From a virus, in IMG/VR virus record IMGVR_UViG_3300045988_096981, positions 1-33,598 of that record: a stretch of DNA of 33,598 bases; one strand, 5' to 3'. Below the pieces are notes generated by a model. The model worked only from the letters and a program-made list of their open reading frames with translations, searched no databases and had not been told where the DNA came from. This document shows positions 1,991-33,598 of this stretch, one piece after another; positions within the stretch are counted from its first letter, which is position 1, and every line of letters begins with the position of its first letter. The position numbers were made by a program, and so were the translations under genes.

Positions 1991-2018
1991 AAAAAAGGCA
2001 CCCCGAAAACGGAGTGCC
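1991..2018 (-). terminator. Rho-independent terminator ending the 92-aa/RHH cassette
   Basis: Minus-strand RNA reads GGCACUCCG-UUUU-CGGGGUGCC followed by UUUUUU. The single non-Watson-Crick pair is G:U on the minus strand and C/A on the plus strand. Confidence 0.8.
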
Positions 2019-2062
2019 CCACAATGACAGCTGCAAATCACAACAACTGCCCGGCTATCATA

Positions 2063-2254
2063 CTACTTTTTAAGCGATTGTTCAAGCCTCCAGTTTATCT
2101 CACCAGTTACGCTACGACCGTTTTCAGCAGCAAGCACAACAAGCCGTTCATATACTTCCTGCTTAATTCGTACGTTATAAACTGGCGTAGGTACTTCAAC
2201 CTTAGATTTGATAATCTTGCCATTCTTTTTTACAATTCGATTTATTATTGGCAT
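2063..2254 (-). CDS. Arc/MetJ-type ribbon-helix-helix DNA-binding protein (63 aa)
   Basis: The C-terminal half RIKQEVYERLVVLAAENGRSVTGEINWRLEQSLKK matches the Arc-like RHH signature (beta strand, helix, G-x-S/T, helix). Confidence 0.75.
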   Translation of the reverse strand: MPIINRIVKKNGKIIKSKVEVPTPVYNVRIKQEVYERLVVLAAENGRSVTGEINWRLEQSLKK

Positions 2255-2303
2255 AGTCTTTCCTTTCTTTAGAGCACCCTAGCGCCAAGCGAGGCGTTTG
2301 GTT

Positions 2304-2582
2304 TTATATTAGTTGTAGATCATTCTCTATTTGGTAGGCGATCGCTTCTTGGTCTAACACCTCTTTTAGTTCGTTGAGCGTGTTCATCACCTTTTGACGT
2401 TCGTCTGACAGATAGAGTACTGCTGTTTCCTCTGCCTCACCTCTCCAGTATCCAATGACTGGATAGTCGAGAGTGAAAGCTTCGTGATTAGCGTTTACGG
2501 TTGATATTATCTTGTCGACCTCAAGTTTTTTAGTCTTGTTATTGCTTCCGATAAAAGCTTTGATTGTGATTTGTTCTATCAT
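2304..2582 (-). CDS. Hypothetical acidic protein (92 aa), first gene of the accessory cassette
   Basis: ATG at 2582 lies after a TAGGAG RBS. About 16 acidic versus 9 basic residues. I recognise no family. Confidence 0.75.
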   Translation of the reverse strand: MIEQITIKAFIGSNNKTKKLEVDKIISTVNANHEAFTLDYPVIGYWRGEAEETAVLYLSDERQKVMNTLNELKEVLDQEAIAYQIENDLQLI

Positions 2583-2624
2583 TGTGTGCTCCTAATTGTT
2601 AATGTGCCTCGCTTGACTGTCTTA

Positions 2625-2653
2625 ATTATAGCAAAGTTGCTTACATAATGCAA
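2625..2653 (-). promoter_or_regulatory. Near-consensus promoter of the accessory cassette (TTGCAT-17 nt-TATAAT)
   Basis: Minus strand: -35 at 2653-2648 and -10 at 2630-2625. Two AAAATGC direct repeats 11 nt apart (2671-2665 and 2660-2654) abut the -35. Confidence 0.75.
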
Positions 2654-2792
2654 GCATTTTGCGTGCATTTTATGAAAAAAGTCAGAGATTTTTATTAACC
2701 TGTGGAAAACTCACTTCCCGTAAAAAATATAGCGATATTCTTTATAAAGTCTAATGATAATACGTTTTAACATAAGTTTAATTTTACCAAAT

Positions 2793-2827
2793 AAAAAACT
2801 ACCCTCGATCAAAAGTAGTAGTTTTTT
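2793..2827. terminator. Weak A/T-rich bidirectional hairpin after the holin gene; possible end of the late operon
   Basis: Perfect 10-bp inverted repeat AAAAAACTAC (2793-2802) / GTAGTTTTTT (2818-2827) with a 15-nt loop. Confidence 0.35.
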
Positions 2828-2850
2828 ATAGGATTGCAGAGCTATCTAAA

Positions 2851-14042: not shown

Positions 14043-15827
14043 TTAAGCTTTCTTCAAACCGATTGCTGATTTCAAGCCAGACAAGCCACCACCGATATAA
14101 AGCTCTTGCAAGAACTCTTCCTCGTTGGTCTCAAGCTTAAAGTTAGTGAAGGCTTCTACAGAAGTATCACCAACAGTCTTGTACGCACCAAGCACGACAA
14201 CATATGCGTCGTAGTCTGGATCAGTTGCGTCAGTAAACCATGTTGGCTCAATGATAGTAGCTGTGTCTAATACGTCTTCAGCCTTTGCGCCAATCTGGAA
14301 CAAGTATTTACCGTCAGCACCCTTTTCAAAGCGTGCGCTTGTTGCAAAGCCTTTCTTAGCGATAAGAACAATCTCACCGTCAGTACGGATCATGTCCTTA
14401 GCTCGAGCTACAGCTTCAGCGCGGCTCATACCTGCTGTAATAGTCAACTCATCACCGAAGGTATTCTTTGCTTTTACGTCTGACTTAATAGAAGTAAATG
14501 ACGTAATCTTGCGCTTGTCGCTATCTTCACGACCGTCACCGATAACAGCAGCACGTTCAACTTCGCGAATAATTCGGGTAGGCAATTCGTTCAGAACGTA
14601 TTTCATCAATGCGCCTGTTGATTTGTTCTCACGGATAGTCTGCTTGTCGAGTACCAAGTACTTGTAAATCACGCCTGCGCGGATTGTACGGCTTTCAAAG
14701 TCAATAACTTGCTGGTCTTTCTTTTCGCCCTTCTTGTGTCCGCCTGCACGACTAGTGTCAGCTTCGACATCGGCTTTGTCCCAGGTAACCTTGAATACAT
14801 CTAGACCAGTCTTGTTCAATTTGCTGAAGATTTCACCTGATGTTACAGCGTCTTCAATAGCAGAAACGACAGGCTCTGGCAGTTTGAAAAACTCTTTGTC
14901 GGTCAAGTTATTCTTAACCAAAACATCTTGCCAAGCGCTCTTAACGTCATTAAAAGTACGACCAGCGTTTGCCATCAATACTTGTGTAAAATCTCGCACT
15001 GATGCTTGAGTTTTTAGATAGTCATTAACAGTAGGGGTTGTCGTAACCTCTGCTTGCTCTTTTGGCTCGATGATTTGAGCCTTTGCGATTTCCTCGTTCA
15101 TTTCGTTCTCCTCTTCTTTACCTGATTTATCTTCTACTGGCGGCTCAGGTGTGTCGTCAGCAGGTTCTTCGACCTTTTCGGTCTCTTCACTTTTCACTCG
15201 TGTAGCGATTGCCATAGCTGGTGCCAAGCATGCGTCTTTCACGATTGAGGTATAGCTAGCGGCAGCTTTCATAGCGTCAGACAAGCTTGTTTTCGCTTCT
15301 ACTGCTTCGGTTGCAAATCCAAGCTCCACAGCTTCAGCGGCAGTCATCCACGTCTCAGCAGCTAACAGTTCTTCTATCTTTTCTTCAGATAGTCCTGTTC
15401 GGCTTGCATAAACTGGAATCATACTCTCACAAGTCTTCTCTAACATCTCAACAGCTCGACCTAATTCGTCTGCATTTCCAGCTGCGATTGTCCACGGCTT
15501 GTGAACCATCATCATCGCGCCAGGTAGCATAACGATTTCGTCGCCAGCCATTGCTATGAGAGACGCTATAGACGCGGCTAGTCCATCGACCTTTACTACA
15601 ACACGTCCGTTATATTCACGGAGCATATTGTAAATCGATACACCAGCGAATACATCACCCCCAGGACTGTTAATCCTCACTGTAATGTCGCCTGTACGCG
15701 CAGCTAATTCCTCTTTGAAAAGTTTTGGCGTAACGTCGTCCTCGAGCCAACTCTCACTAGCAATAGTGCCATTGATAATTAACTCGTTTGAGGCTTCAGC
15801 TTTCGCCCACTTCCAGAATTTATCCAT
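14043..15827 (-). CDS. Fusion protein: ClpP/S14-type prohead protease, an acidic scaffold-like linker, and an HK97-fold major capsid protein
   Basis: The N-terminus carries INSPGGDVFAGVSIYN, VDGLAASIASLIAMAGD and MMVHKPW (ClpP-like Ser/His context). The middle is Glu/Pro-rich. The C-terminal ~330 aa sit in the capsid position and no separate capsid ORF exists. Confidence 0.8.
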   Translation of the reverse strand: MDKFWKWAKAEASNELIINGTIASESWLEDDVTPKLFKEELAARTGDITVRINSPGGDVFAGVSIYNMLREYNGRVVVKVDGLAASIASLIAMAGDEIVMLPGAMMMVHKPWTIAAGNADELGRAVEMLEKTCESMIPVYASRTGLSEEKIEELLAAETWMTAAEAVELGFATEAVEAKTSLSDAMKAAASYTSIVKDACLAPAMAIATRVKSEETEKVEEPADDTPEPPVEDKSGKEEENEMNEEIAKAQIIEPKEQAEVTTTPTVNDYLKTQASVRDFTQVLMANAGRTFNDVKSAWQDVLVKNNLTDKEFFKLPEPVVSAIEDAVTSGEIFSKLNKTGLDVFKVTWDKADVEADTSRAGGHKKGEKKDQQVIDFESRTIRAGVIYKYLVLDKQTIRENKSTGALMKYVLNELPTRIIREVERAAVIGDGREDSDKRKITSFTSIKSDVKAKNTFGDELTITAGMSRAEAVARAKDMIRTDGEIVLIAKKGFATSARFEKGADGKYLFQIGAKAEDVLDTATIIEPTWFTDATDPDYDAYVVVLGAYKTVGDTSVEAFTNFKLETNEEEFLQELYIGGGLSGLKSAIGLKKA

Positions 15828-15881: not shown

Positions 15882-16094
15882 TCATTCTGAGGTGCTATCG
15901 TGAGTGCGTGGTGGCTTCTCATCTTCAGTGAAGACAAGCTGTTTTATCTTGTCAGAGCAGTCAGTCGCGAATAGAACTTTAATATTCAATTTCGCTTTAC
16001 ATTTAGAGTTTGGGCAAATTAAACCCTGTATGGCAGTAGAAGTAACAGCTTCAAACAAATATCTACCACAATACTTACAGTTTATCTTTATCAT
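15882..16094 (-). CDS. com: Mu Com-like zinc-ribbon protein (70 aa)
   Basis: MIKINCKYCGRYLFEA...LICPNSKCKAKLNI parallels Mu Com (IRCKNCNKLLFKA...IRCPRCK). Confidence 0.65.
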   Translation of the reverse strand: MIKINCKYCGRYLFEAVTSTAIQGLICPNSKCKAKLNIKVLFATDCSDKIKQLVFTEDEKPPRTHDSTSE

Positions 16095-18118
16095 TGCTTA
16101 ATCCTGAATTTCGGGCGACCACCACAATTAGGATGAATAGGTCCGCCAATATTTTCTTCATAATCATTTACCCATGTGCCGCTGTCTGTTTCTATTGCTT
16201 CGTTAAGCTTAATCATCGGTTGAGCAACAGGCTTCCAGATTCCTTCCAATGCTCTACACTCTGGGCAATGTGCGCCAACTGGATGATTTATAGTTTTCTC
16301 AATTTCTGCCCCTGTTTCAGATTCGAGCTGCTTCATTGCCTCCACATCACCAACACTCTCAGAGCGCTGTATTTCAGTGCGAGCTAATCGAGCAACTCTG
16401 TATTCGTCAGTATTCATGATATCTCTCAGCAAGTCTCTTGTCTGACTTTCGCTTAAATTATCAAGATGCGATCGCTCTAGTGTATCGTTGATGACCTTTT
16501 TGGTTTCGTCATCGTATGATTTAGCTACTCGTGTAAGATGTGAGCGGTAATCTGCTCTAGCAGTATCAGATAGGACAAACTCGTCAGTACTTTCAGTGTC
16601 TAGTCCTGCGCTCTTAACCATGTCTAAGCCTTTTTTGTATTGATCTGTACCACTAGAGATAAGCAATAGAGTGATTAACGCTAACGAATCTTCTATAAAA
16701 CGCTCTAACTTGTCGTCTTCAGCTTCGTTTTGAGTGCCAAGTTCTTGAATGGCTTGGTCAACACGGCTTTGCATAAAACTCTTTGCAATATTATACAGTT
16801 TGTCATACTCAGAGGCTTCGGCTTTAAGCGCACCTACTGTGCGTGGGTCTGGGGCTTTCTCCACTTCGCTGCCCTCGTCAACTTGTGGCTTGTCGTTTTC
16901 TATTTCAGTATTGTTATTTTCGCCCAGTTTGAGAAGTTTGTAATTCTGTGGTAGTTTGAGTGCATCAATAACAGAATCTAATTCGTAACCTTTATCAACC
17001 AGCTTTAAGATGGTATCTGTGTTAGTTGCCATCACTTCTGCCTCAACCTTTTTACGGTCGGCAATCTCTGGTATTTCATAGTCAAAAGTAATAGCAACAC
17101 CGATACCACCAGTAATCCTATTGAGTTCATGCGTTAAACGAGAGTAAATTTTAAGCGCTCGTGGATAAACAACACGCTTAGCAAAACCACGCTCGGAAAC
17201 GTCAGCATTTGAGTACTTAGCTTGGTCGTCAACGCCTTTAATAATCTGACTAACACCATACGCCATGTCGATTCGCTTGTTTGCCTGCTCAAATACAGCT
17301 GCAAAATCAATATCTTTTTGAGATTGTGCATATGGTATCCACTGAATCTGTGCTTCAGCGGGTTTATTCGTTGTCGGGTCAATCGGACGATGAGAATATG
17401 TAACGTTACCATTTTTACCAGCTCCACGGTGGCGAGATTCCAACAGGTCAACCATATCATTATATTCACGGGCAGTACGAGCTGCAATGACAAACATACC
17501 AGCAGGAATCGCGTTATTCTCAAAGAAACCACGTTGGAAATCAGCAATATAATCGTCTAATGTAATCCATTGGGTAGCGGCTTCAGTTGGTGAGTATCCA
17601 GCGTATAAGTTACTTGGGTCAACACCTCCAGAGATTACAATGACTTGATCTTCAGTAAAAGTCTCAGCCCCTACTTGATAGTAGGTCTTGTTATCACGAC
17701 GTGTAATACTTGGATGCTCTAAGAACGTGAATCCAGCAATGTTCTGACCTTTGAATCCATAATTCGTAGTCTTTACAGCTTTACCGTCCTCTTTTGCCCA
17801 AACTAGAATAAATGTATTACGATTTACTAGAGTAGAAACAATAAGCTTCTCGCTAAACGATACGAAATCATCGACACGGTTAGGATGATAAAGAGCATTA
17901 AGAATTGGATTGTTCTGTACGGTCTTGCCATTCGAGTCGATGACTTTTGGCATGATAGTGATAAATTCATTAGCAATCGCTTGAATGTTTGGATAGGCAG
18001 AATCGTACTTACTTGCACAATAGCGACTATACCAATCTCCTGTATTAAAATTAGCTAACGAAGAAATGCCCTCAACCTTTACTTGAGATTTTGGCTTAAA
18101 AAGTGACAATAAATTCAT
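16091..18118 (-). CDS. Portal protein fused to a Mu F / SPP1 gp7-like head morphogenesis domain
   Basis: 675 aa, immediately after TerL. The C-terminus ...HPVGAHCPECRALEG...GGPIHPNCGGRP resembles the Mu F HPNCRC-type end. Confidence 0.85.
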   Translation of the reverse strand: MNLLSLFKPKSQVKVEGISSLANFNTGDWYSRYCASKYDSAYPNIQAIANEFITIMPKVIDSNGKTVQNNPILNALYHPNRVDDFVSFSEKLIVSTLVNRNTFILVWAKEDGKAVKTTNYGFKGQNIAGFTFLEHPSITRRDNKTYYQVGAETFTEDQVIVISGGVDPSNLYAGYSPTEAATQWITLDDYIADFQRGFFENNAIPAGMFVIAARTAREYNDMVDLLESRHRGAGKNGNVTYSHRPIDPTTNKPAEAQIQWIPYAQSQKDIDFAAVFEQANKRIDMAYGVSQIIKGVDDQAKYSNADVSERGFAKRVVYPRALKIYSRLTHELNRITGGIGVAITFDYEIPEIADRKKVEAEVMATNTDTILKLVDKGYELDSVIDALKLPQNYKLLKLGENNNTEIENDKPQVDEGSEVEKAPDPRTVGALKAEASEYDKLYNIAKSFMQSRVDQAIQELGTQNEAEDDKLERFIEDSLALITLLLISSGTDQYKKGLDMVKSAGLDTESTDEFVLSDTARADYRSHLTRVAKSYDDETKKVINDTLERSHLDNLSESQTRDLLRDIMNTDEYRVARLARTEIQRSESVGDVEAMKQLESETGAEIEKTINHPVGAHCPECRALEGIWKPVAQPMIKLNEAIETDSGTWVNDYEENIGGPIHPNCGGRPKFRIKQ

Positions 18119-20491: not shown

Positions 20492-21061
20492 TTACAATTC
20501 AATCTCTGGTGTAGCTTTCTCCCAGCCCTCCTCGGAGCCGGTAATTATCTTGTGCCACCGCTTTCTTACAACATCAACATAGGCTGGCTCTAATTCTGAA
20601 GCCACGCAGATTCTGTCTGTCTGTTCACAAGCAATCAGAGTTGATCCACTGCCTGCGAAAGGTTCATAAATAACATCTTTGGCTTTCGATATGGATAGGA
20701 TAGCTTTCGCCATTAGCCCAACAGGCTTCATAGTTGGATGGTCTTTACTTTTACTTGGGTTATTAAAAAACCACACATCAGACTGAGACCGACCACCGCT
20801 CCATGCTCTGCGTTCGTTGATATCTCCGTATATAGCCATTTCGGCGGTAGATTCGTCACCGCTTTCTGCGTCATACTTTCCATCCGATACATGATAGAGT
20901 ATCGGCTCGAATTGATGCTGGAAGTCTGACCCTCCAAGAGTGAACCTGTTCTTCACCCAAATAATATAACTCCTCCATACCAACCCAGCAAGCTCCAAAC
21001 TGGTGCGAAAATCATCTAGCTTAAGAGGGGACATAAACGCCAATACCCCCCCCCGAAACAT
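20492..21061 (-). CDS. DNA methyltransferase, C-terminal fragment (SAM-binding FAGSGST region) of the split ParB-MTase
   Basis: Motifs HPTMKPVGL and IYEPFAGSGSTLIACEQ are present. This frame is +1 relative to 21021-21734, and the two frames overlap at the G9 tract. Confidence 0.8.
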   Translation of the reverse strand: MFRGGVLAFMSPLKLDDFRTSLELAGLVWRSYIIWVKNRFTLGGSDFQHQFEPILYHVSDGKYDAESGDESTAEMAIYGDINERRAWSGGRSQSDVWFFNNPSKSKDHPTMKPVGLMAKAILSISKAKDVIYEPFAGSGSTLIACEQTDRICVASELEPAYVDVVRKRWHKIITGSEEGWEKATPEIEL

Positions 21062-21734
21062 TACGGCTAATACTACTAGCTACGTCGTCTAAGAATTTAC
21101 GAAAATCATCATCAGACATTTTGTCGTTGGCAATCTTCTTTCTGCGTCTATGTGCGCCCCCAGTATATCCAATTCCGTACGGAGGATCTGTTACGCACGC
21201 CGTAGCGGGACTTTCGAAAAATCTATCCATATCCATAAACGAACCACAGTATAAAATGTGTCGACCTAGACGATATGCTTTTCCAGCCTCAGAAACAGCA
21301 GGAGAATCATCTTCTACTGGCGGTGGAGTGTCTTCTGTGATGTCTACATCATTGAGCATGACAGGCAAGTCTAACCCCCACGCATCGAGCTGCTCTCCAT
21401 CCCACTCATTTGCTAACAAATCATAATCCCAATCGCCACCACTGACATTGTCTTTAATGACAAATTCGCGCTGCTTCTCATCACTCCAGTCTACAATCTT
21501 TACAGGTATTGTTGTTAAGCCAGCCTCTTTAGCTGCACGATAGCGCATATTACCGCCAAGTATCGTCATGTCCTTATTCACGACAATTTCACGCGCCTCA
21601 ATCATTTCTGGAAAATCTTTCAGAGATTGAACAAGTTTCTTGAATGCGTCGTCCTTAATAATTCTTGGATTATTTGGATTTGACTTGATTTTTGACAAGT
21701 TAACATATTGACGAGATATCTTTTCAGCCGTCAT
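21021..21734 (-). CDS. ParB-like nuclease domain plus the N-terminal part of an N4/N6 DNA methyltransferase (DPPYG motif), truncated by a frameshift
   Basis: IKSNPNNPRII...GGNMRYRAA gives the ParB N-terminal motif. CVTDPPYGIGY is the catalytic motif. The frame ends 8 codons after the homopolymer. Confidence 0.8.
   Translation of the reverse strand: MTAEKISRQYVNLSKIKSNPNNPRIIKDDAFKKLVQSLKDFPEMIEAREIVVNKDMTILGGNMRYRAAKEAGLTTIPVKIVDWSDEKQREFVIKDNVSGGDWDYDLLANEWDGEQLDAWGLDLPVMLNDVDITEDTPPPVEDDSPAVSEAGKAYRLGRHILYCGSFMDMDRFFESPATACVTDPPYGIGYTGGAHRRRKKIANDKMSDDDFRKFLDDVASSISRNVSGGGIGVYVPS
21046..21054. repeat. C9 (coding-strand G9) homopolymer at the frame break of the ParB-MTase
   Basis: Counted directly: CAATA-CCCCCCCCC-GAAAC. 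Removing one G joins ...SRNVSGG to VLAFMSPLKL... in one frame. Confidence 0.95.
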
Positions 21735-30540: not shown

Positions 30541-30845
30541 TTATACTGCCCACTTTTCAGCGCAGGTGTGGGAGACCTGTAGTGAGCAGTAGCGGACGTT
30601 TGAAACACAGGAGTTTTACTTTTAATAAACCCAAAAATAAACACTCAAACGTCCAGCAAAGGAGCTGGCGATCGTCAAACCGCCCATTACTGCCCACTAA
30701 TTCCAAATTGTTAAGATACCAACTTCTACACGTGTTACGCCTGAACCTTCGAGCAATCTGTCACGCTTGTATAATTTTCGTCGTACGCTCTTTTATGGTG
30801 TCGCTTACGTAATCGTAATAGCACAGCTTGTTAATTCTGCACGAG

Positions 30846-30873
30846 ATTATCAGATACGCGTTTGATAACCTCG
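30846..30873. promoter_or_regulatory. Palindromic operator-like site, copy 2 (TTATCAGA-TACGCG-TTTGATAA plus CCTCG)
   Basis: 30848-30873 is the reverse complement of 631-656 with one mismatch. Confidence 0.6.
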
Positions 30874-30879
30874 TGGAAA

Positions 30880-30908
30880 TTAAAAAACCACAGCGATTTG
30901 CTGTGGTT
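30880..30908 (-). terminator. Rho-independent terminator directly after the tRNA-derived attP core
   Basis: Minus strand: AACCACAGC-AAATC-GCTGTGGTT followed by TTTTAATTT. Confidence 0.75.
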
Positions 30909-30921
30909 AAAACCCAAATTA

Positions 30922-30966
30922 TGGCGCCCCGAGTAGGATTCGAACCTACGACCTTAGGCTTAGAAG
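30922..30966 (-). other. attP core: the 3' portion of a tRNA-Arg(UCU) gene, from anticodon loop through T-arm to acceptor 3' strand and CCA, with no 5' half
   Basis: Minus strand reads CTTCTAA-GCCTA-AGGTC-GTAGG-TTCGAAT-CCTAC-TCGGGGC-G-CCA. The upstream sequence has no GCCCCGA acceptor strand or D-arm. The element lies 127 nt from the integrase stop. Confidence 0.75.
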
Positions 30967-31052
30967 TCCTCAGGTTGCCAATCAGATTATAACATAAACT
31001 TATCGCTTTAGTACAAATCAGAGGGTGTAAAAGTTCTATTGAATATGCTCTT

Positions 31053-31092: not shown

Positions 31093-31950
31093 TTAAATTG
31101 GGCGTAAAGTCATAAATTTGTCGAATTGCTCCCTTATATATTTAGGTGGGACGTGTAGATAGTTTTGCGTTGTATTCACGTTTTCATGACCTAGACTTAT
31201 TTGAACTGTTTTTATATCAGCACCGTTTAAGTACATGTTTGTAGCGAACGAATAGCGTGCTATATGAGGGCTTACGTGATAACCATACTTCTCAAACACC
31301 TTTAGCCAACGCGCTATTGTGTCGGTGTCGACTGGCTTCGACTGGTCGACATTTTTATGTATTTGTTTTCTTTTAATAAGATAGCCATCGATGCTATTTT
31401 TGATAATAAACTCTCTCACTAGCTTCATAATTTCAGGGTGAACCAAAACTTCACGACATTTACCACCAGCTTTACCTTTTCCTCTTACAGATATGTAATT
31501 ATCGTAGATATCTTGCGTGCGTATTCTCACCAACTCAGAAACTCGAAGACCTGAGCCAAACATTAGATAGATAATTATTTTCATTTGCTCATCAACTTCA
31601 CCTAGGACTTTGCAGACTATATCTTCAGGCACTACTGTTTTGTCTACTTTTTCTGGTGTTATAGTTTTGATTTTTTGCCACCTAAACCCTAGAGTGATTT
31701 CAAAGTCGCCTTCTAGACATCTGAAAAAGCTCCTTAAAACTGTTATCAAGGCGGCAAGACTGTTTCTTTTTAAGTTGCTTTTTGAGGCTAAATACTCACG
31801 AATATGCTTCAACTGAATTTCTTCAATTTTCTGTACGCCTTTTGTTCTCAAAAACTTATCGAAGTCATTTAGCCACACTTTTCTGTCATAGACGGTCTTA
31901 TCTGATAGACGGTCTACATCACGAATAAAAGATAAATACTCATCAATCAC
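31093..31950 (-). CDS. int: Tyrosine recombinase / phage integrase (285 aa from GTG 31950; the ORF track extends it to a TTG at 32004)
   Basis: Catalytic motifs are GLRVSELVRIR, HIARYSFAT (H-x-x-R) and LGHENVNTTQNYLHV (H...Y). A GGGAGGAG RBS lies 6 nt before the GTG. Confidence 0.9.
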   Translation of the reverse strand: MIDEYLSFIRDVDRLSDKTVYDRKVWLNDFDKFLRTKGVQKIEEIQLKHIREYLASKSNLKRNSLAALITVLRSFFRCLEGDFEITLGFRWQKIKTITPEKVDKTVVPEDIVCKVLGEVDEQMKIIIYLMFGSGLRVSELVRIRTQDIYDNYISVRGKGKAGGKCREVLVHPEIMKLVREFIIKNSIDGYLIKRKQIHKNVDQSKPVDTDTIARWLKVFEKYGYHVSPHIARYSFATNMYLNGADIKTVQISLGHENVNTTQNYLHVPPKYIREQFDKFMTLRPI

Positions 31951-32120
31951 AGAGCACTCCTCCCACAAAAAAATTAATATTTTGTAGGATTTTGAGGTGC
32001 CCAACTAGTGTTGCTTTCAGACCACCCACACGGTCGTCAACTCGGCAGTAGATATGGCTAATTTCTTATTCAATTTTGCCACGTCTAGCCGTGTCTGCAT
32101 AGTGTAAAATTCACAAAGTC

Positions 32121-33240: not shown

Positions 33241-33598
33241 GATCCATCTCCCATTAACTCATCTAGGTCTGCCATGCCTTCATGTTGCTTTTTTCGCTTC
33301 GATAGCATGTTGTCTATTGTAGAGGCTCTGAGCAGATAGTCGCTTTTTAATTCGTTAATCTTCTTTGAGTGCCAATCATCTTCAACGAGTACGTCTAGTG
33401 CTTTACCGATTTCTTCTAACGAGAACTTCTTCAAGGTTTCTTTGTAACCACGTGGAAGTATTCTGAAATTACGTTTGGTTTTTTCGTTTAGTAGGTCTAA
33501 TAGTTTTTTATCAACTTCACTATTACTTATTATATTCTTAGCGTTATTATTTACAGATTTTGAAGTTTCTTGAATTCCTGATTTTGAAGTTTCTTGAA
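33228..33598 (-). CDS. Replication initiator / replisome organizer, C-terminal part (continuation of 377-1; 33544-33598 duplicates 1-55)
   Basis: ...KTKRNFRILPRGYKETLKKFSLEEIGKALDVLVEDDWHSKKINELKSDYLLRASTIDNMLS resembles the conserved phage replication-protein C-terminal (DnaD-like) domain. Confidence 0.8.
   Translation of the reverse strand, partial: QETSKSGIQETSKSVNNNAKNIISNSEVDKKLLDLLNEKTKRNFRILPRGYKETLKKFSLEEIGKALDVLVEDDWHSKKINELKSDYLLRASTIDNMLSKRKKQHEGMADLDELMGDGSWMA
33544..33598. repeat. Right-hand copy of the 55-nt end overlap
   Basis: Identical to 1-55. Confidence 0.95.

Follow-up and report, generated by a model that had tools for sequence, protein, structure and literature searches.

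A mobile phage cassette with covarying long-range mRNA pairing, an Arc-type repressor gene and a predicted relative of S-adenosylmethionine lyases

We analysed a 33,598-nt viral DNA sequence (IMG/VR record IMGVR_UViG_3300045988_096981, positions 1 to 33,598; hereafter the window) and observed on its minus strand a compact cassette that runs from its own promoter to its own terminator and holds two genes, an open reading frame (ORF) for a 92-residue protein (ORF92) and an ORF for a 63-residue protein of the Arc-type ribbon-helix-helix (RHH) class (ORF63, here arc). On balance, we favour reading this cassette as an anti-defence operon of Saccharibacteria phages that is mobile and limits its own output, similar to operons controlled by anti-CRISPR-associated (Aca) repressors and built around a toxic enzyme of the S-adenosylmethionine (SAM) lyase type whose expression would be doubly capped. 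Direct support was obtained for the anatomy of the cassette, its conservation as a unit, the fold of ORF92, its homology to SAM lyases and the covarying RNA helices.

A sequence-only reading of the window had placed here, on the minus strand, a promoter, repeats, the 92-residue ORF, an Arc-type ORF and a terminator, and each was recovered at the same position. The proposed stand-alone, bicistronic nature of the module was likewise borne out, since the terminator of the preceding holin operon at 2829-2791 and the cassette's own terminator leave it insulated on both sides. The features are listed in the direction of transcription.

2791..2829, minus strand: terminator hairpin of the preceding late (holin) operon (-14.3 kcal/mol, z = -4.2), followed by a U-run; also an inverted repeat
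2699..2710, minus strand: conserved 12-mer GTTTTCCACAGG, about 30 nt upstream of the boxes, kept with the cassette
2639..2671, minus strand: three tandem boxes, candidate Arc operator (11-bp spacing, core ATGYNNGC)
2625..2653, minus strand: promoter (-35 TTGCAT at 2653-2648, 17-nt spacer, -10 TATAAT at 2630-2625)
2606..2617, minus strand: 5′ arm of helix A, GUCAAGCGAGGC, at the extreme 5′ end of the mRNA (partner 2295-2284)
2586..2592, minus strand: 5′ arm of helix C, GGAGCAC, the Shine-Dalgarno region of ORF92 (partner 2277-2271)
2586-2576, minus strand: 5′ arm of helix B1, CACAAUGAUAG, which includes the AUG (partner B1′ in the 3′ untranslated region, 3′UTR)
2573-2564, minus strand: 5′ arm of helix B2, CAAAUCACAA, codons 4-7 (partner B2′ in the 3′UTR)
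2304..2582, minus strand: ORF92, 92 residues, predicted PII/CutA-like, phrog_16022, of a probably SAM-lyase-related family
2271..2295, minus strand: intergenic anti-5′UTR element, consisting of A′ GCCUCGCUUGGC (2295-2284) and C′ GUGCUCU (2277-2271)
2063..2254, minus strand: ORF63, Arc-type RHH protein of 63 residues (Pfam Arc), candidate autorepressor
2020..2043, minus strand: 3′UTR anti-start element abutting the terminator, consisting of B2′ UUGUGAUUUG (2043-2034) and B1′ CUGUCAUUGUG (2030-2020)
1991..2020, minus strand: intrinsic terminator, an 11-bp hairpin followed by U6 (-18.9 kcal/mol, z = -5.1)

Transcription is predicted to start at about 2618. The cassette promoter was absent from the output of a consensus promoter scan because its -35 hexamer agrees with TTGACA at only three of six positions. 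Both hexamers are kept in 60 distinct upstream sequences of related loci, the promoter being conserved in all loci, even at 62-70% protein identity, and we therefore take it as real. A consensus scan also missed the cassette terminator, though its hairpin folds clearly: the hairpin spans 2020-1997 and is followed by T6 at 1996-1991, and the 9-bp core described in the sequence-only reading is present with its single U.G pair. Every divergent locus carries a terminator hairpin of differing sequence. The Shine-Dalgarno sequence of ORF92 is AGGAG, and a gap of 49 nt separates ORF92 from arc.

Long-range pairing across the cassette mRNA

We observed that, in comparison to a cassette of 70% identity, the 5′UTR, the spacer between ORF92 and arc, and the 3′UTR are more conserved than the coding sequence and are mutually complementary. 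In divergent cassettes from soil and other metagenomes, the sequences at the helix sites differ and the complementarity is kept. This long-range pairing over the ribosome-binding region of the effector gene, which we regard as the strongest of the regulatory features, had no place in the sequence-only reading. We counted covariation over 25 distinct cassettes and 39 pairs, with controls in which the 3′ partner was slid by one to three columns and with 500 shuffles. Standard pairs occupied 95.3% of the cells, compared to 33-48% in the slid controls. Both sides had changed at 19 of the 39 pairs (4-8 in the slid controls), and double changes were found in 117 cells (7-22 in the slid controls). 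None of the 500 shuffles reached the observed values.

The individual helices were examined separately. Helix A forms all 12 of its pairs in all 25 distinct cassettes, with three compensatory pairs and RNAduplex energies of -25 to -32 kcal/mol. For helix C, 80% of the cells are paired in the alignment columns and three pairs are compensatory; by eye, its pairing is held in every clade with differing sequences. Helix B1 is paired in 98.8% of the cells, and nine of the ten pairs counted (2585-2576) are compensatory, following changes in the N-terminal codons of ORF92, while helix B2 is 96% paired with four compensatory pairs. The minimum-free-energy fold of the 628-nt transcript includes helix B (z = -5.1). 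At three positions dominated by G.U pairs the other strand would carry A.C mismatches, and the structure therefore belongs to the sense RNA. An Rfam search of 1800-2900 returned nothing above noise and no riboswitch. We also considered whether the complementarity might stem from a transposable element with terminal inverted repeats and rejected this idea: the left arm would lie inside the ORF and would leave out the co-conserved promoter, and the wobble pairs fit the sense RNA only.

These data suggest that the pairing would lower the translation of ORF92. Two mRNAs offer precedents. In hok mRNA, the ends of the message pair through the fbi-tac interaction and cause fold-back inhibition, and in icaR of S. 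aureus, pairing between the 5′ and 3′UTRs blocks translation and recruits RNase III. The cassette shares with both a 3′-terminal segment that pairs with the initiation region of a harmful or tightly regulated gene, as well as support from covariation. It differs from both in that its mRNA is bicistronic and carries a second anti-5′UTR element in the intergenic region. It further differs in that its helices cross, an antisense RNA is not known, and the product is enzyme-like instead of a membrane peptide or a regulator.

Alternatively, the helices might act as an RNase III processing site or as a stabiliser of the mRNA, with the 5′ end sequestered and joined to the 3′ end, and not as a translational lock. 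We consider this possible, although unlikely. The duplex of helix B, although interrupted, exceeds 20 bp and resembles the substrates that RNase III cleaves, helix A buries the first nucleotides of the transcript, and icaR provides a precedent. Two properties of the RNA also count against a simple lock. First, the helices are arranged in the order A, C, B ... A′, C′ ... B′ and therefore cross, which calls for a pseudoknot-like arrangement or for sequential formation during transcription. Second, a nested-fold model, in which crossing helices are not representable, shows only a modest fall in the accessibility of the ORF92 start region, from ~0.6 to 0.45. On the other side, the 5′ segments engaged in pairing coincide exactly with the Shine-Dalgarno sequence, the AUG and codons 2-7, and they track coding changes at the N-terminus, as a translational operator would. 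The two roles are not mutually exclusive. A covarying long-range mRNA structure over the ribosome-binding region of an effector would be a layer of control undescribed for anti-defence operons, and screening for start regions with a conserved complement in the 3′UTR could therefore flag other dose-sensitive phage genes.

A separate stretch of complementarity (24 nt, 83%) lies between 2536-2559, which covers codons 8-15 of ORF92, and 1949-1972, just downstream of the cassette terminator. It would be relevant only to read-through transcripts and may have arisen by chance.

ORF92 and the phage SAM lyases

ORF92 encodes an acidic protein with 16 acidic and nine basic residues, as the sequence-only reading had counted, and an isoelectric point of 4.56. 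The same reading recognised no family for it. This view did not survive profile and structure searches, which place the protein in a large family with a PII/CutA-like fold and link it, through its relatives, to phage SAM lyases. The only library match of ORF92 itself is phrog_16022, a PHROG without known function; PADLOC and NCBIfam gave no match. We found 87 close homologues, and a family profile search of 1.84 billion representative proteins, clustered at 50% identity, retrieved at least 445 family representatives or clusters (E <= 0.001), nearly all of ~86-95 residues. Across the family E51 and Q78 are invariant, and G12, N15, T17, T37, G44, W46 and G48 are nearly so.

The link to SAM lyases comes from several members of this family. 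The S-AdoMet_lyase profile PF23780, of which the T3 SAMase is a full-length member, was matched by 32 of 58 diverse family members at E < 0.01 (best E = 1.8e-6), always over profile positions ~14-86. Member P0314 scored 29.2 bits, above the curated cut-off of 28, and member P0305, which is 42% identical to ORF92 (E = 2e-24), scored 27.3 bits. In addition, four of the 58 members matched phrog_2226, the PHROG of the T3 SAMase. The AlphaFold model of P0314 (predicted local distance difference test score, pLDDT, 96.2) has the same PII-like ferredoxin topology as that of ORF92. When it was compared with 350,000 PDB chains using Foldseek, the Svi3-3 SAM lyase 6ZNB was its second-best match (E = 4e-4, TM 0.64) and the one with the highest sequence identity in the list.

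We next compare the ORF92 model with the known active sites. The model (pLDDT 92.7) has the topology beta-alpha-beta-beta-alpha-beta, and its best PDB matches are CutA and PII-like proteins. SAM lyases assemble into trimers with a PII/CutA-like ferredoxin fold, and strict conservation among them is confined to Gly56, Glu69 and Gln104 (Svi3-3 numbering), accompanied by Tyr58 and Glu105 (PMC7877911). The T-loop between beta2 and beta3 ends with the catalytic Glu, and the B-loop between alpha2 and beta4 holds the Gln (PMC12255297); in the validated lyase Orf1, the catalytic E50 is followed by D51 (PMC7877911). Backbone atoms of a V-G-L-N-V segment also help to form the active site (PMC7877911, PMC12255297). 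In ORF92, beta1 is followed by I-G-S-N-N, beta2 ends with G44-x-W46, beta3 begins with E51-E52, and the alpha2-beta4 loop contains Q78-E79. Thus the Gly, Glu and Gln of the SAM lyases and their neighbouring aromatic and acidic residues are matched in the ORF92 model, with equivalence judged by secondary-structure position, and we predict that G12/N15, G44-x-W46, E51 and Q78-E79 form the active site. The protein is probably a trimer, as proposed from this fold.

ORF92 therefore shares several traits with the SAM lyases (T3 SAMase gp0.3, Svi3-3 and Orf1) and the SAM-AMP lyases (the C. botulinum enzyme and the candidate AcrIIIB4). With this whole group it has the PII/CutA-like ferredoxin fold in common. 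With the SAM lyases it further shares a Gly-x-aromatic motif that closes beta2, a Glu that opens beta3 and a Gln-Glu pair in the loop from alpha2 to beta4. ORF92 and the SAM lyases are also phage-encoded, and distant ORF92 relatives come first in their operons, like gene 0.3 in T3. They differ in size, with 86-95 residues in the ORF92 family and ~125-160 in SAM lyases. The coupling to an Arc repressor and an RNA lock in Saccharibacteria phages is undescribed for SAM lyases, and the activity of ORF92 is a prediction.

Several results weigh against this assignment. ORF92 has no Pfam match at E <= 1, PF23780 included, and so falls below every Pfam threshold, and no SAM lyase is found among the 50 listed PDB matches of its model. 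The sequences of solved SAM lyases were unmatched by the family profile, and searches of PDB chains with the close and wider profiles and with member P0111 gave noise only. Aligning the family with hhalign to the T3 SAMase alone and to a 19-sequence T3 SAMase alignment gave no match (probability 0.5% for the subfamily). Structurally, the C-terminal beta-hairpin that closes over the active site of Svi3-3 has no counterpart in ORF92, whose chain stops 14 residues past Q78, and the ORF92 T-loop (the beta2-beta3 turn) has 2-4 residues, compared to 10-12 in SAM lyases. Finally, the phage itself encodes at least two DNA methyltransferases that require SAM. Despite these differences, the Pfam matches, the above-threshold member, the PHROG and the structure match agree, and for this reason we regard homology of the ORF92 family to the SAM lyase superfamily as well supported by the profile and model comparisons. 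Most likely, ORF92 would cleave SAM or a SAM derivative such as SAM-AMP.

It is quite unlikely, in our view, that ORF92 is instead a non-catalytic PII-like binder, which might sequester or sense SAM, a nucleotide or an immune signal or might bind a host protein, its dose still being limited by Arc and the RNA lock. Such a binder would agree with the closest PDB matches of the model, which are CutA and PII signalling proteins with ligand sites between the subunits of a trimer, with the missing closing hairpin and the very short T-loop, and with Pfam scores that mostly stay below the cut-off. However, the family-invariant Gly, aromatic, Glu and Gln-Glu are exactly the residues used for positioning SAM and for catalysis in SAM lyases, and a mere binder would not obviously need strict dose control.

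Arc, its candidate operator and the proposed circuit

The sequence-only reading had seen an Arc/MetJ signature in ORF63, and this was confirmed by a match to Pfam Arc PF03869 (E = 1e-8, 35.4 bits, cut-off 20.4). The closest solved relative is the P22 Arc repressor (1arq, E = 9e-4). A basic N-terminal arm of 22 residues (M..NRI.KK.GKI.K..V..P) is conserved in the Arc partner of all cassettes, even the most divergent. This arm (2188-2254) is absent from P22 Arc and could be a DNA arm or an RNA-binding or partner-binding segment.

Upstream of ORF92, the two AAAATGC repeats of the sequence-only reading (2671-2665 and 2660-2654, with starts 11 nt apart) are present, but they are part of a larger array of three boxes. 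The boxes are tandem 11-bp units, AAAATGCACGC, AAAATGCTTGC and ATTATGTAAGC, each with the pseudo-palindromic core ATGYNNGC(A). Box 2 overlaps the -35 hexamer and box 3 fills the spacer. The position of the array is constant in 64 distinct upstream sequences, including those of the most divergent cassettes, and sequence conservation upstream of the gene starts exactly at box 1. The three-box array (2668-2639) is unique in the window, with none expected in shuffles; single boxes occur elsewhere in the window at chance frequency, and no two-box site was found in the genome outside the cassette promoter. At an 11-bp spacing, neighbouring RHH dimers come to lie on the same side of the double helix, as they do at the Arc operator. 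The array is a plausible candidate for the operator of the cassette, to which Arc would bind.

We observed that the cassette is conserved, and moves, as a unit between phage backgrounds. Of the 75 close loci that extend far enough, 74 have arc downstream of ORF92 and the sole exception contains a run of N; in 48 loci the two cassette genes are the only ones shared with the window within 5 kb. The cassette lies after the terminase gene in locus L001, opposite the terminase and portal genes in L095, between lysin and integrase in L096 and near TraG-like genes in L097. In three loci one or more extra genes stand between the ORF92 homologue and arc, and all RNA pairing elements are retained around them, so that the slot between ORF92 and arc can take cargo. 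These insertions lie at L092:1139-1468 (a 109-residue gene), L095:2833-3036 (a 67-residue gene) and L097:622-1200 (a 192-residue gene with DUF3560). More distant members of the family (37-48% identity) lack an Arc-like neighbour. At least five unrelated phages carry such a member at or close to the start of an operon transcribed divergently from the gene for the terminase large subunit, a position reminiscent of that of SAMase as the first gene in T3.

The 12-mer GTTTTCCACAGG moves with the cassette from one phage background to another. L001 has an identical copy in a different context, and the 12-mer is present in most loci, in some of them in the opposite orientation. A second, inverted copy lies at 494-505 of the window, where 0.13 copies would be expected by chance. 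A 15-bp inverted repeat based on GTTTTCCACAGG (495-509, 2695-2709) brackets the 2.2 kb from the cassette to the H-type-lectin gene.

Repression of anti-defence operons by an RHH-type Aca protein (Aca14) has been demonstrated experimentally (bioRxiv 10.64898/2026.07.27.740549). The acr-aca logic suggested in the sequence-only reading fits the cassette well. As in operons with the RHH-type Aca14 or the RNA-binding Aca1 and Aca2, a small repressor gene lies behind the small effector gene in one operon, and repeats overlap the promoter. Both kinds of operon would have transcriptional and post-transcriptional layers, and both are mobile with variable genome positions. In the cassette, however, long-range RNA-RNA pairing across ~330 and 560 nt takes the place of a 5′UTR hairpin bound by Aca, three direct boxes spaced by 11 bp replace the single inverted repeat, and the effector is a predicted enzyme.

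From these data we infer an enzyme activity and its substrate, the defence targeted, the binding of Arc and an effect of the RNA on translation, which could combine as follows. Upon phage entry the promoter would fire, and ORF92 would be translated mainly from nascent transcripts. The enzyme would then remove SAM or a SAM-derived signal and blunt SAM-dependent defences such as type I and III restriction, BREX and type III-B CRISPR signalling. Once the spacer and the 3′UTR are finished, they would close over the 5′ end, the Shine-Dalgarno sequence, the start codon and the first codons of ORF92 and leave the arc start free, so that the completed mRNA would serve the repressor gene. Arc would accumulate, occupy the three boxes over the -35 hexamer and the spacer, and shut the promoter, as Aca proteins do. 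With such a pulse, the methyltransferases of the phage, which themselves depend on SAM, might be spared, as might the host cell during lysogeny. Over-expressed SAM lyases are toxic (PMC7877911), which would call for tight control of the kind proposed for the cassette; the output of ORF92 would thus be capped twice because such an enzyme is harmful in excess. Type III-B CRISPR systems occur in Saccharibacteria (PMC10746230), and SAM-AMP is for this reason a conceivable substrate.

SAM lyases that act as anti-restriction enzymes and acr-aca operons with repressors, including RHH repressors, are already known. The minimal SAM-lyase-like family, its coupling to Arc in Saccharibacteria phages and the covarying mRNA fold-back over the effector start appear to be new; in the literature we found no published description of any of the three. 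The assignment provides a testable biochemical function for a large unannotated phage family of ~90 residues (phrog_16022). If active, its members would rank as the smallest known SAM lyases and add to the available anti-restriction, anti-BREX and anti-type-III tools. The cassette would also be the first concrete anti-defence candidate with a regulatory circuit for Saccharibacteria phages, in which the conflict between phage and host is almost unexplored.

A bolder version, which we regard as rather doubtful, sees the cassette as a pulse generator or latent-toxin module around a minimal SAM-degrading enzyme that is made only during transcription and then silenced by a hok-like fold-back and Arc. 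The locked mRNA might then form a stored reserve open to processing, the module might serve addiction or superinfection exclusion by SAM depletion, or the substrate might be SAM-AMP. If SAM-AMP is the true substrate, ORF92 would provide the candidate phyla radiation (CPR), the ultra-small bacteria that include Saccharibacteria, with its first anti-CRISPR candidate.

RHH proteins are classic antitoxins, and the sequence-only reading had left a toxin-antitoxin module as an alternative. In such an addiction module, ORF92 would be the toxin, acting for example by SAM depletion, Arc the antitoxin and repressor, and the folded mRNA a latent, hok-like store activated by processing. Our data weaken this proposal, which we now hold to be decidedly improbable. 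The toxicity of over-expressed SAM lyases, the RHH precedent, weak profile matches of the FitA and RelB-like kind, and the resemblance of the mRNA end pairing to the fbi-tac of hok are all compatible with it, as are the conserved Arc arm, which could bind a partner, and the mobility of the pair, which lies beside TraG-like genes in L097. However, toxin and antitoxin are not obligately paired here, as the relatives at 37-48% identity stand alone, and genes can be inserted between ORF92 and arc. Moreover, PADLOC and NCBIfam assigned neither toxin nor antitoxin and Pfam no toxin, leaving no match to a toxin, antitoxin or defence family. The protein is also acidic, the effector gene comes first, no antisense RNA is evident and Rfam returned nothing. 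A split antitoxin of the HicAB type was rejected, as the HicB N-terminal domain is not matched.

P22 Arc represses the ant operon, and the cassette might accordingly be a switch like immI of P22, in which ORF92 would act as a small antirepressor or as a regulator of development. Since prophage induction would follow if it were expressed by accident, the double lock would have an explanation. The likeness to immI (Arc, Mnt, Ant) includes a repressor close to P22 Arc (...AENGRSV..EI...), a half-site spacing of ~11 bp and an Arc that would autoregulate an operon for a protein dangerous to the lysogen. The phage is temperate by its integrase and by copies within large Saccharibacteria contigs, and no other recognisable repressor was seen among the ORFs examined. 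In contrast to immI, the effector precedes arc and is unrelated to Ant, and a counterpart of Mnt or of the sar antisense RNA was not found. The conserved polar residues together with the profile and fold links indicate an enzyme family, family members head early-type operons in unrelated phages without Arc, and the triple-box array occurs nowhere else in the genome. We therefore consider a switch of this type very unlikely, and continue to favour the Aca-like anti-defence operon.

The phage, its host and other features of the window

Positions 1-55 of the window are duplicated at 33544-33598, and this 55-bp terminal overlap indicates that the window is a circularly closed, complete phage genome of 33,543 bp; its GC content is 40.5%. 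The minus strand carries almost all genes. Those for replication, integration and modification encode a DnaB-like helicase, a tyrosine integrase, Erf, an exonuclease, SSB, NinG and DNA methyltransferases, and the structural and lysis genes encode terminase, portal, a protease-capsid fusion, tail proteins, lysin and holin. The lysin combines Amidase_5 with a zoocin A target-recognition domain.

The sequence-only reading had drawn on a Firmicutes setting for the cassette, and the genome matches point elsewhere. In a collection with one genome per species, all six matches of the 92-residue gene are Candidatus Saccharibacteria assemblies, and two of them sit within contigs of 275 and 396 kb. On these sequence matches, we assign the phage as a temperate phage of Candidatus Saccharibacteria (TM7). 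Searches with blastn and tblastn of ORF92 against 50,697 GenBank phage records gave no matches.

Several smaller observations concern the remainder of the window. The head protease and major capsid protein are apparently fused in one ORF of 594 residues (14043-15827), and the portal ORF (675 residues, 16091-18118) has a C-terminal Mu-F-like head-morphogenesis domain. The overlapping minus-strand ORFs 20492-21061 and 21021-21734 correspond to consecutive halves of the DNA methyltransferase phrog_498 (positions 35-272 and 277-423), with a ParB-like nuclease domain also in the upstream ORF of the pair, and by this sequence match they represent a split or frameshifted methyltransferase gene. Beside the integrase gene (31093-32004), a plus-strand ORF at 30828-30992 reads ...GFEPTT..., which is typical of a translated tRNA gene. 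This suggests that a tRNA-derived attP core adjoins the integrase; ARAGORN found no tRNA genes in the window and no intact tRNA at this site.

Finally, 25-bp inverted repeats (96% complementary) at 698-722 and 1416-1440 enclose the H-type-lectin ORF of the plus strand (718-1065) together with the 3′ part of ORF178 (1067-1603) on the minus strand. Both orientations of the H-lectin and ORF178-C segments are found in related loci (L017 compared to L013; L018 compared to L035, L034 and L016), and the segment between the repeats looks like an invertible tail-fibre segment that would affect host range.

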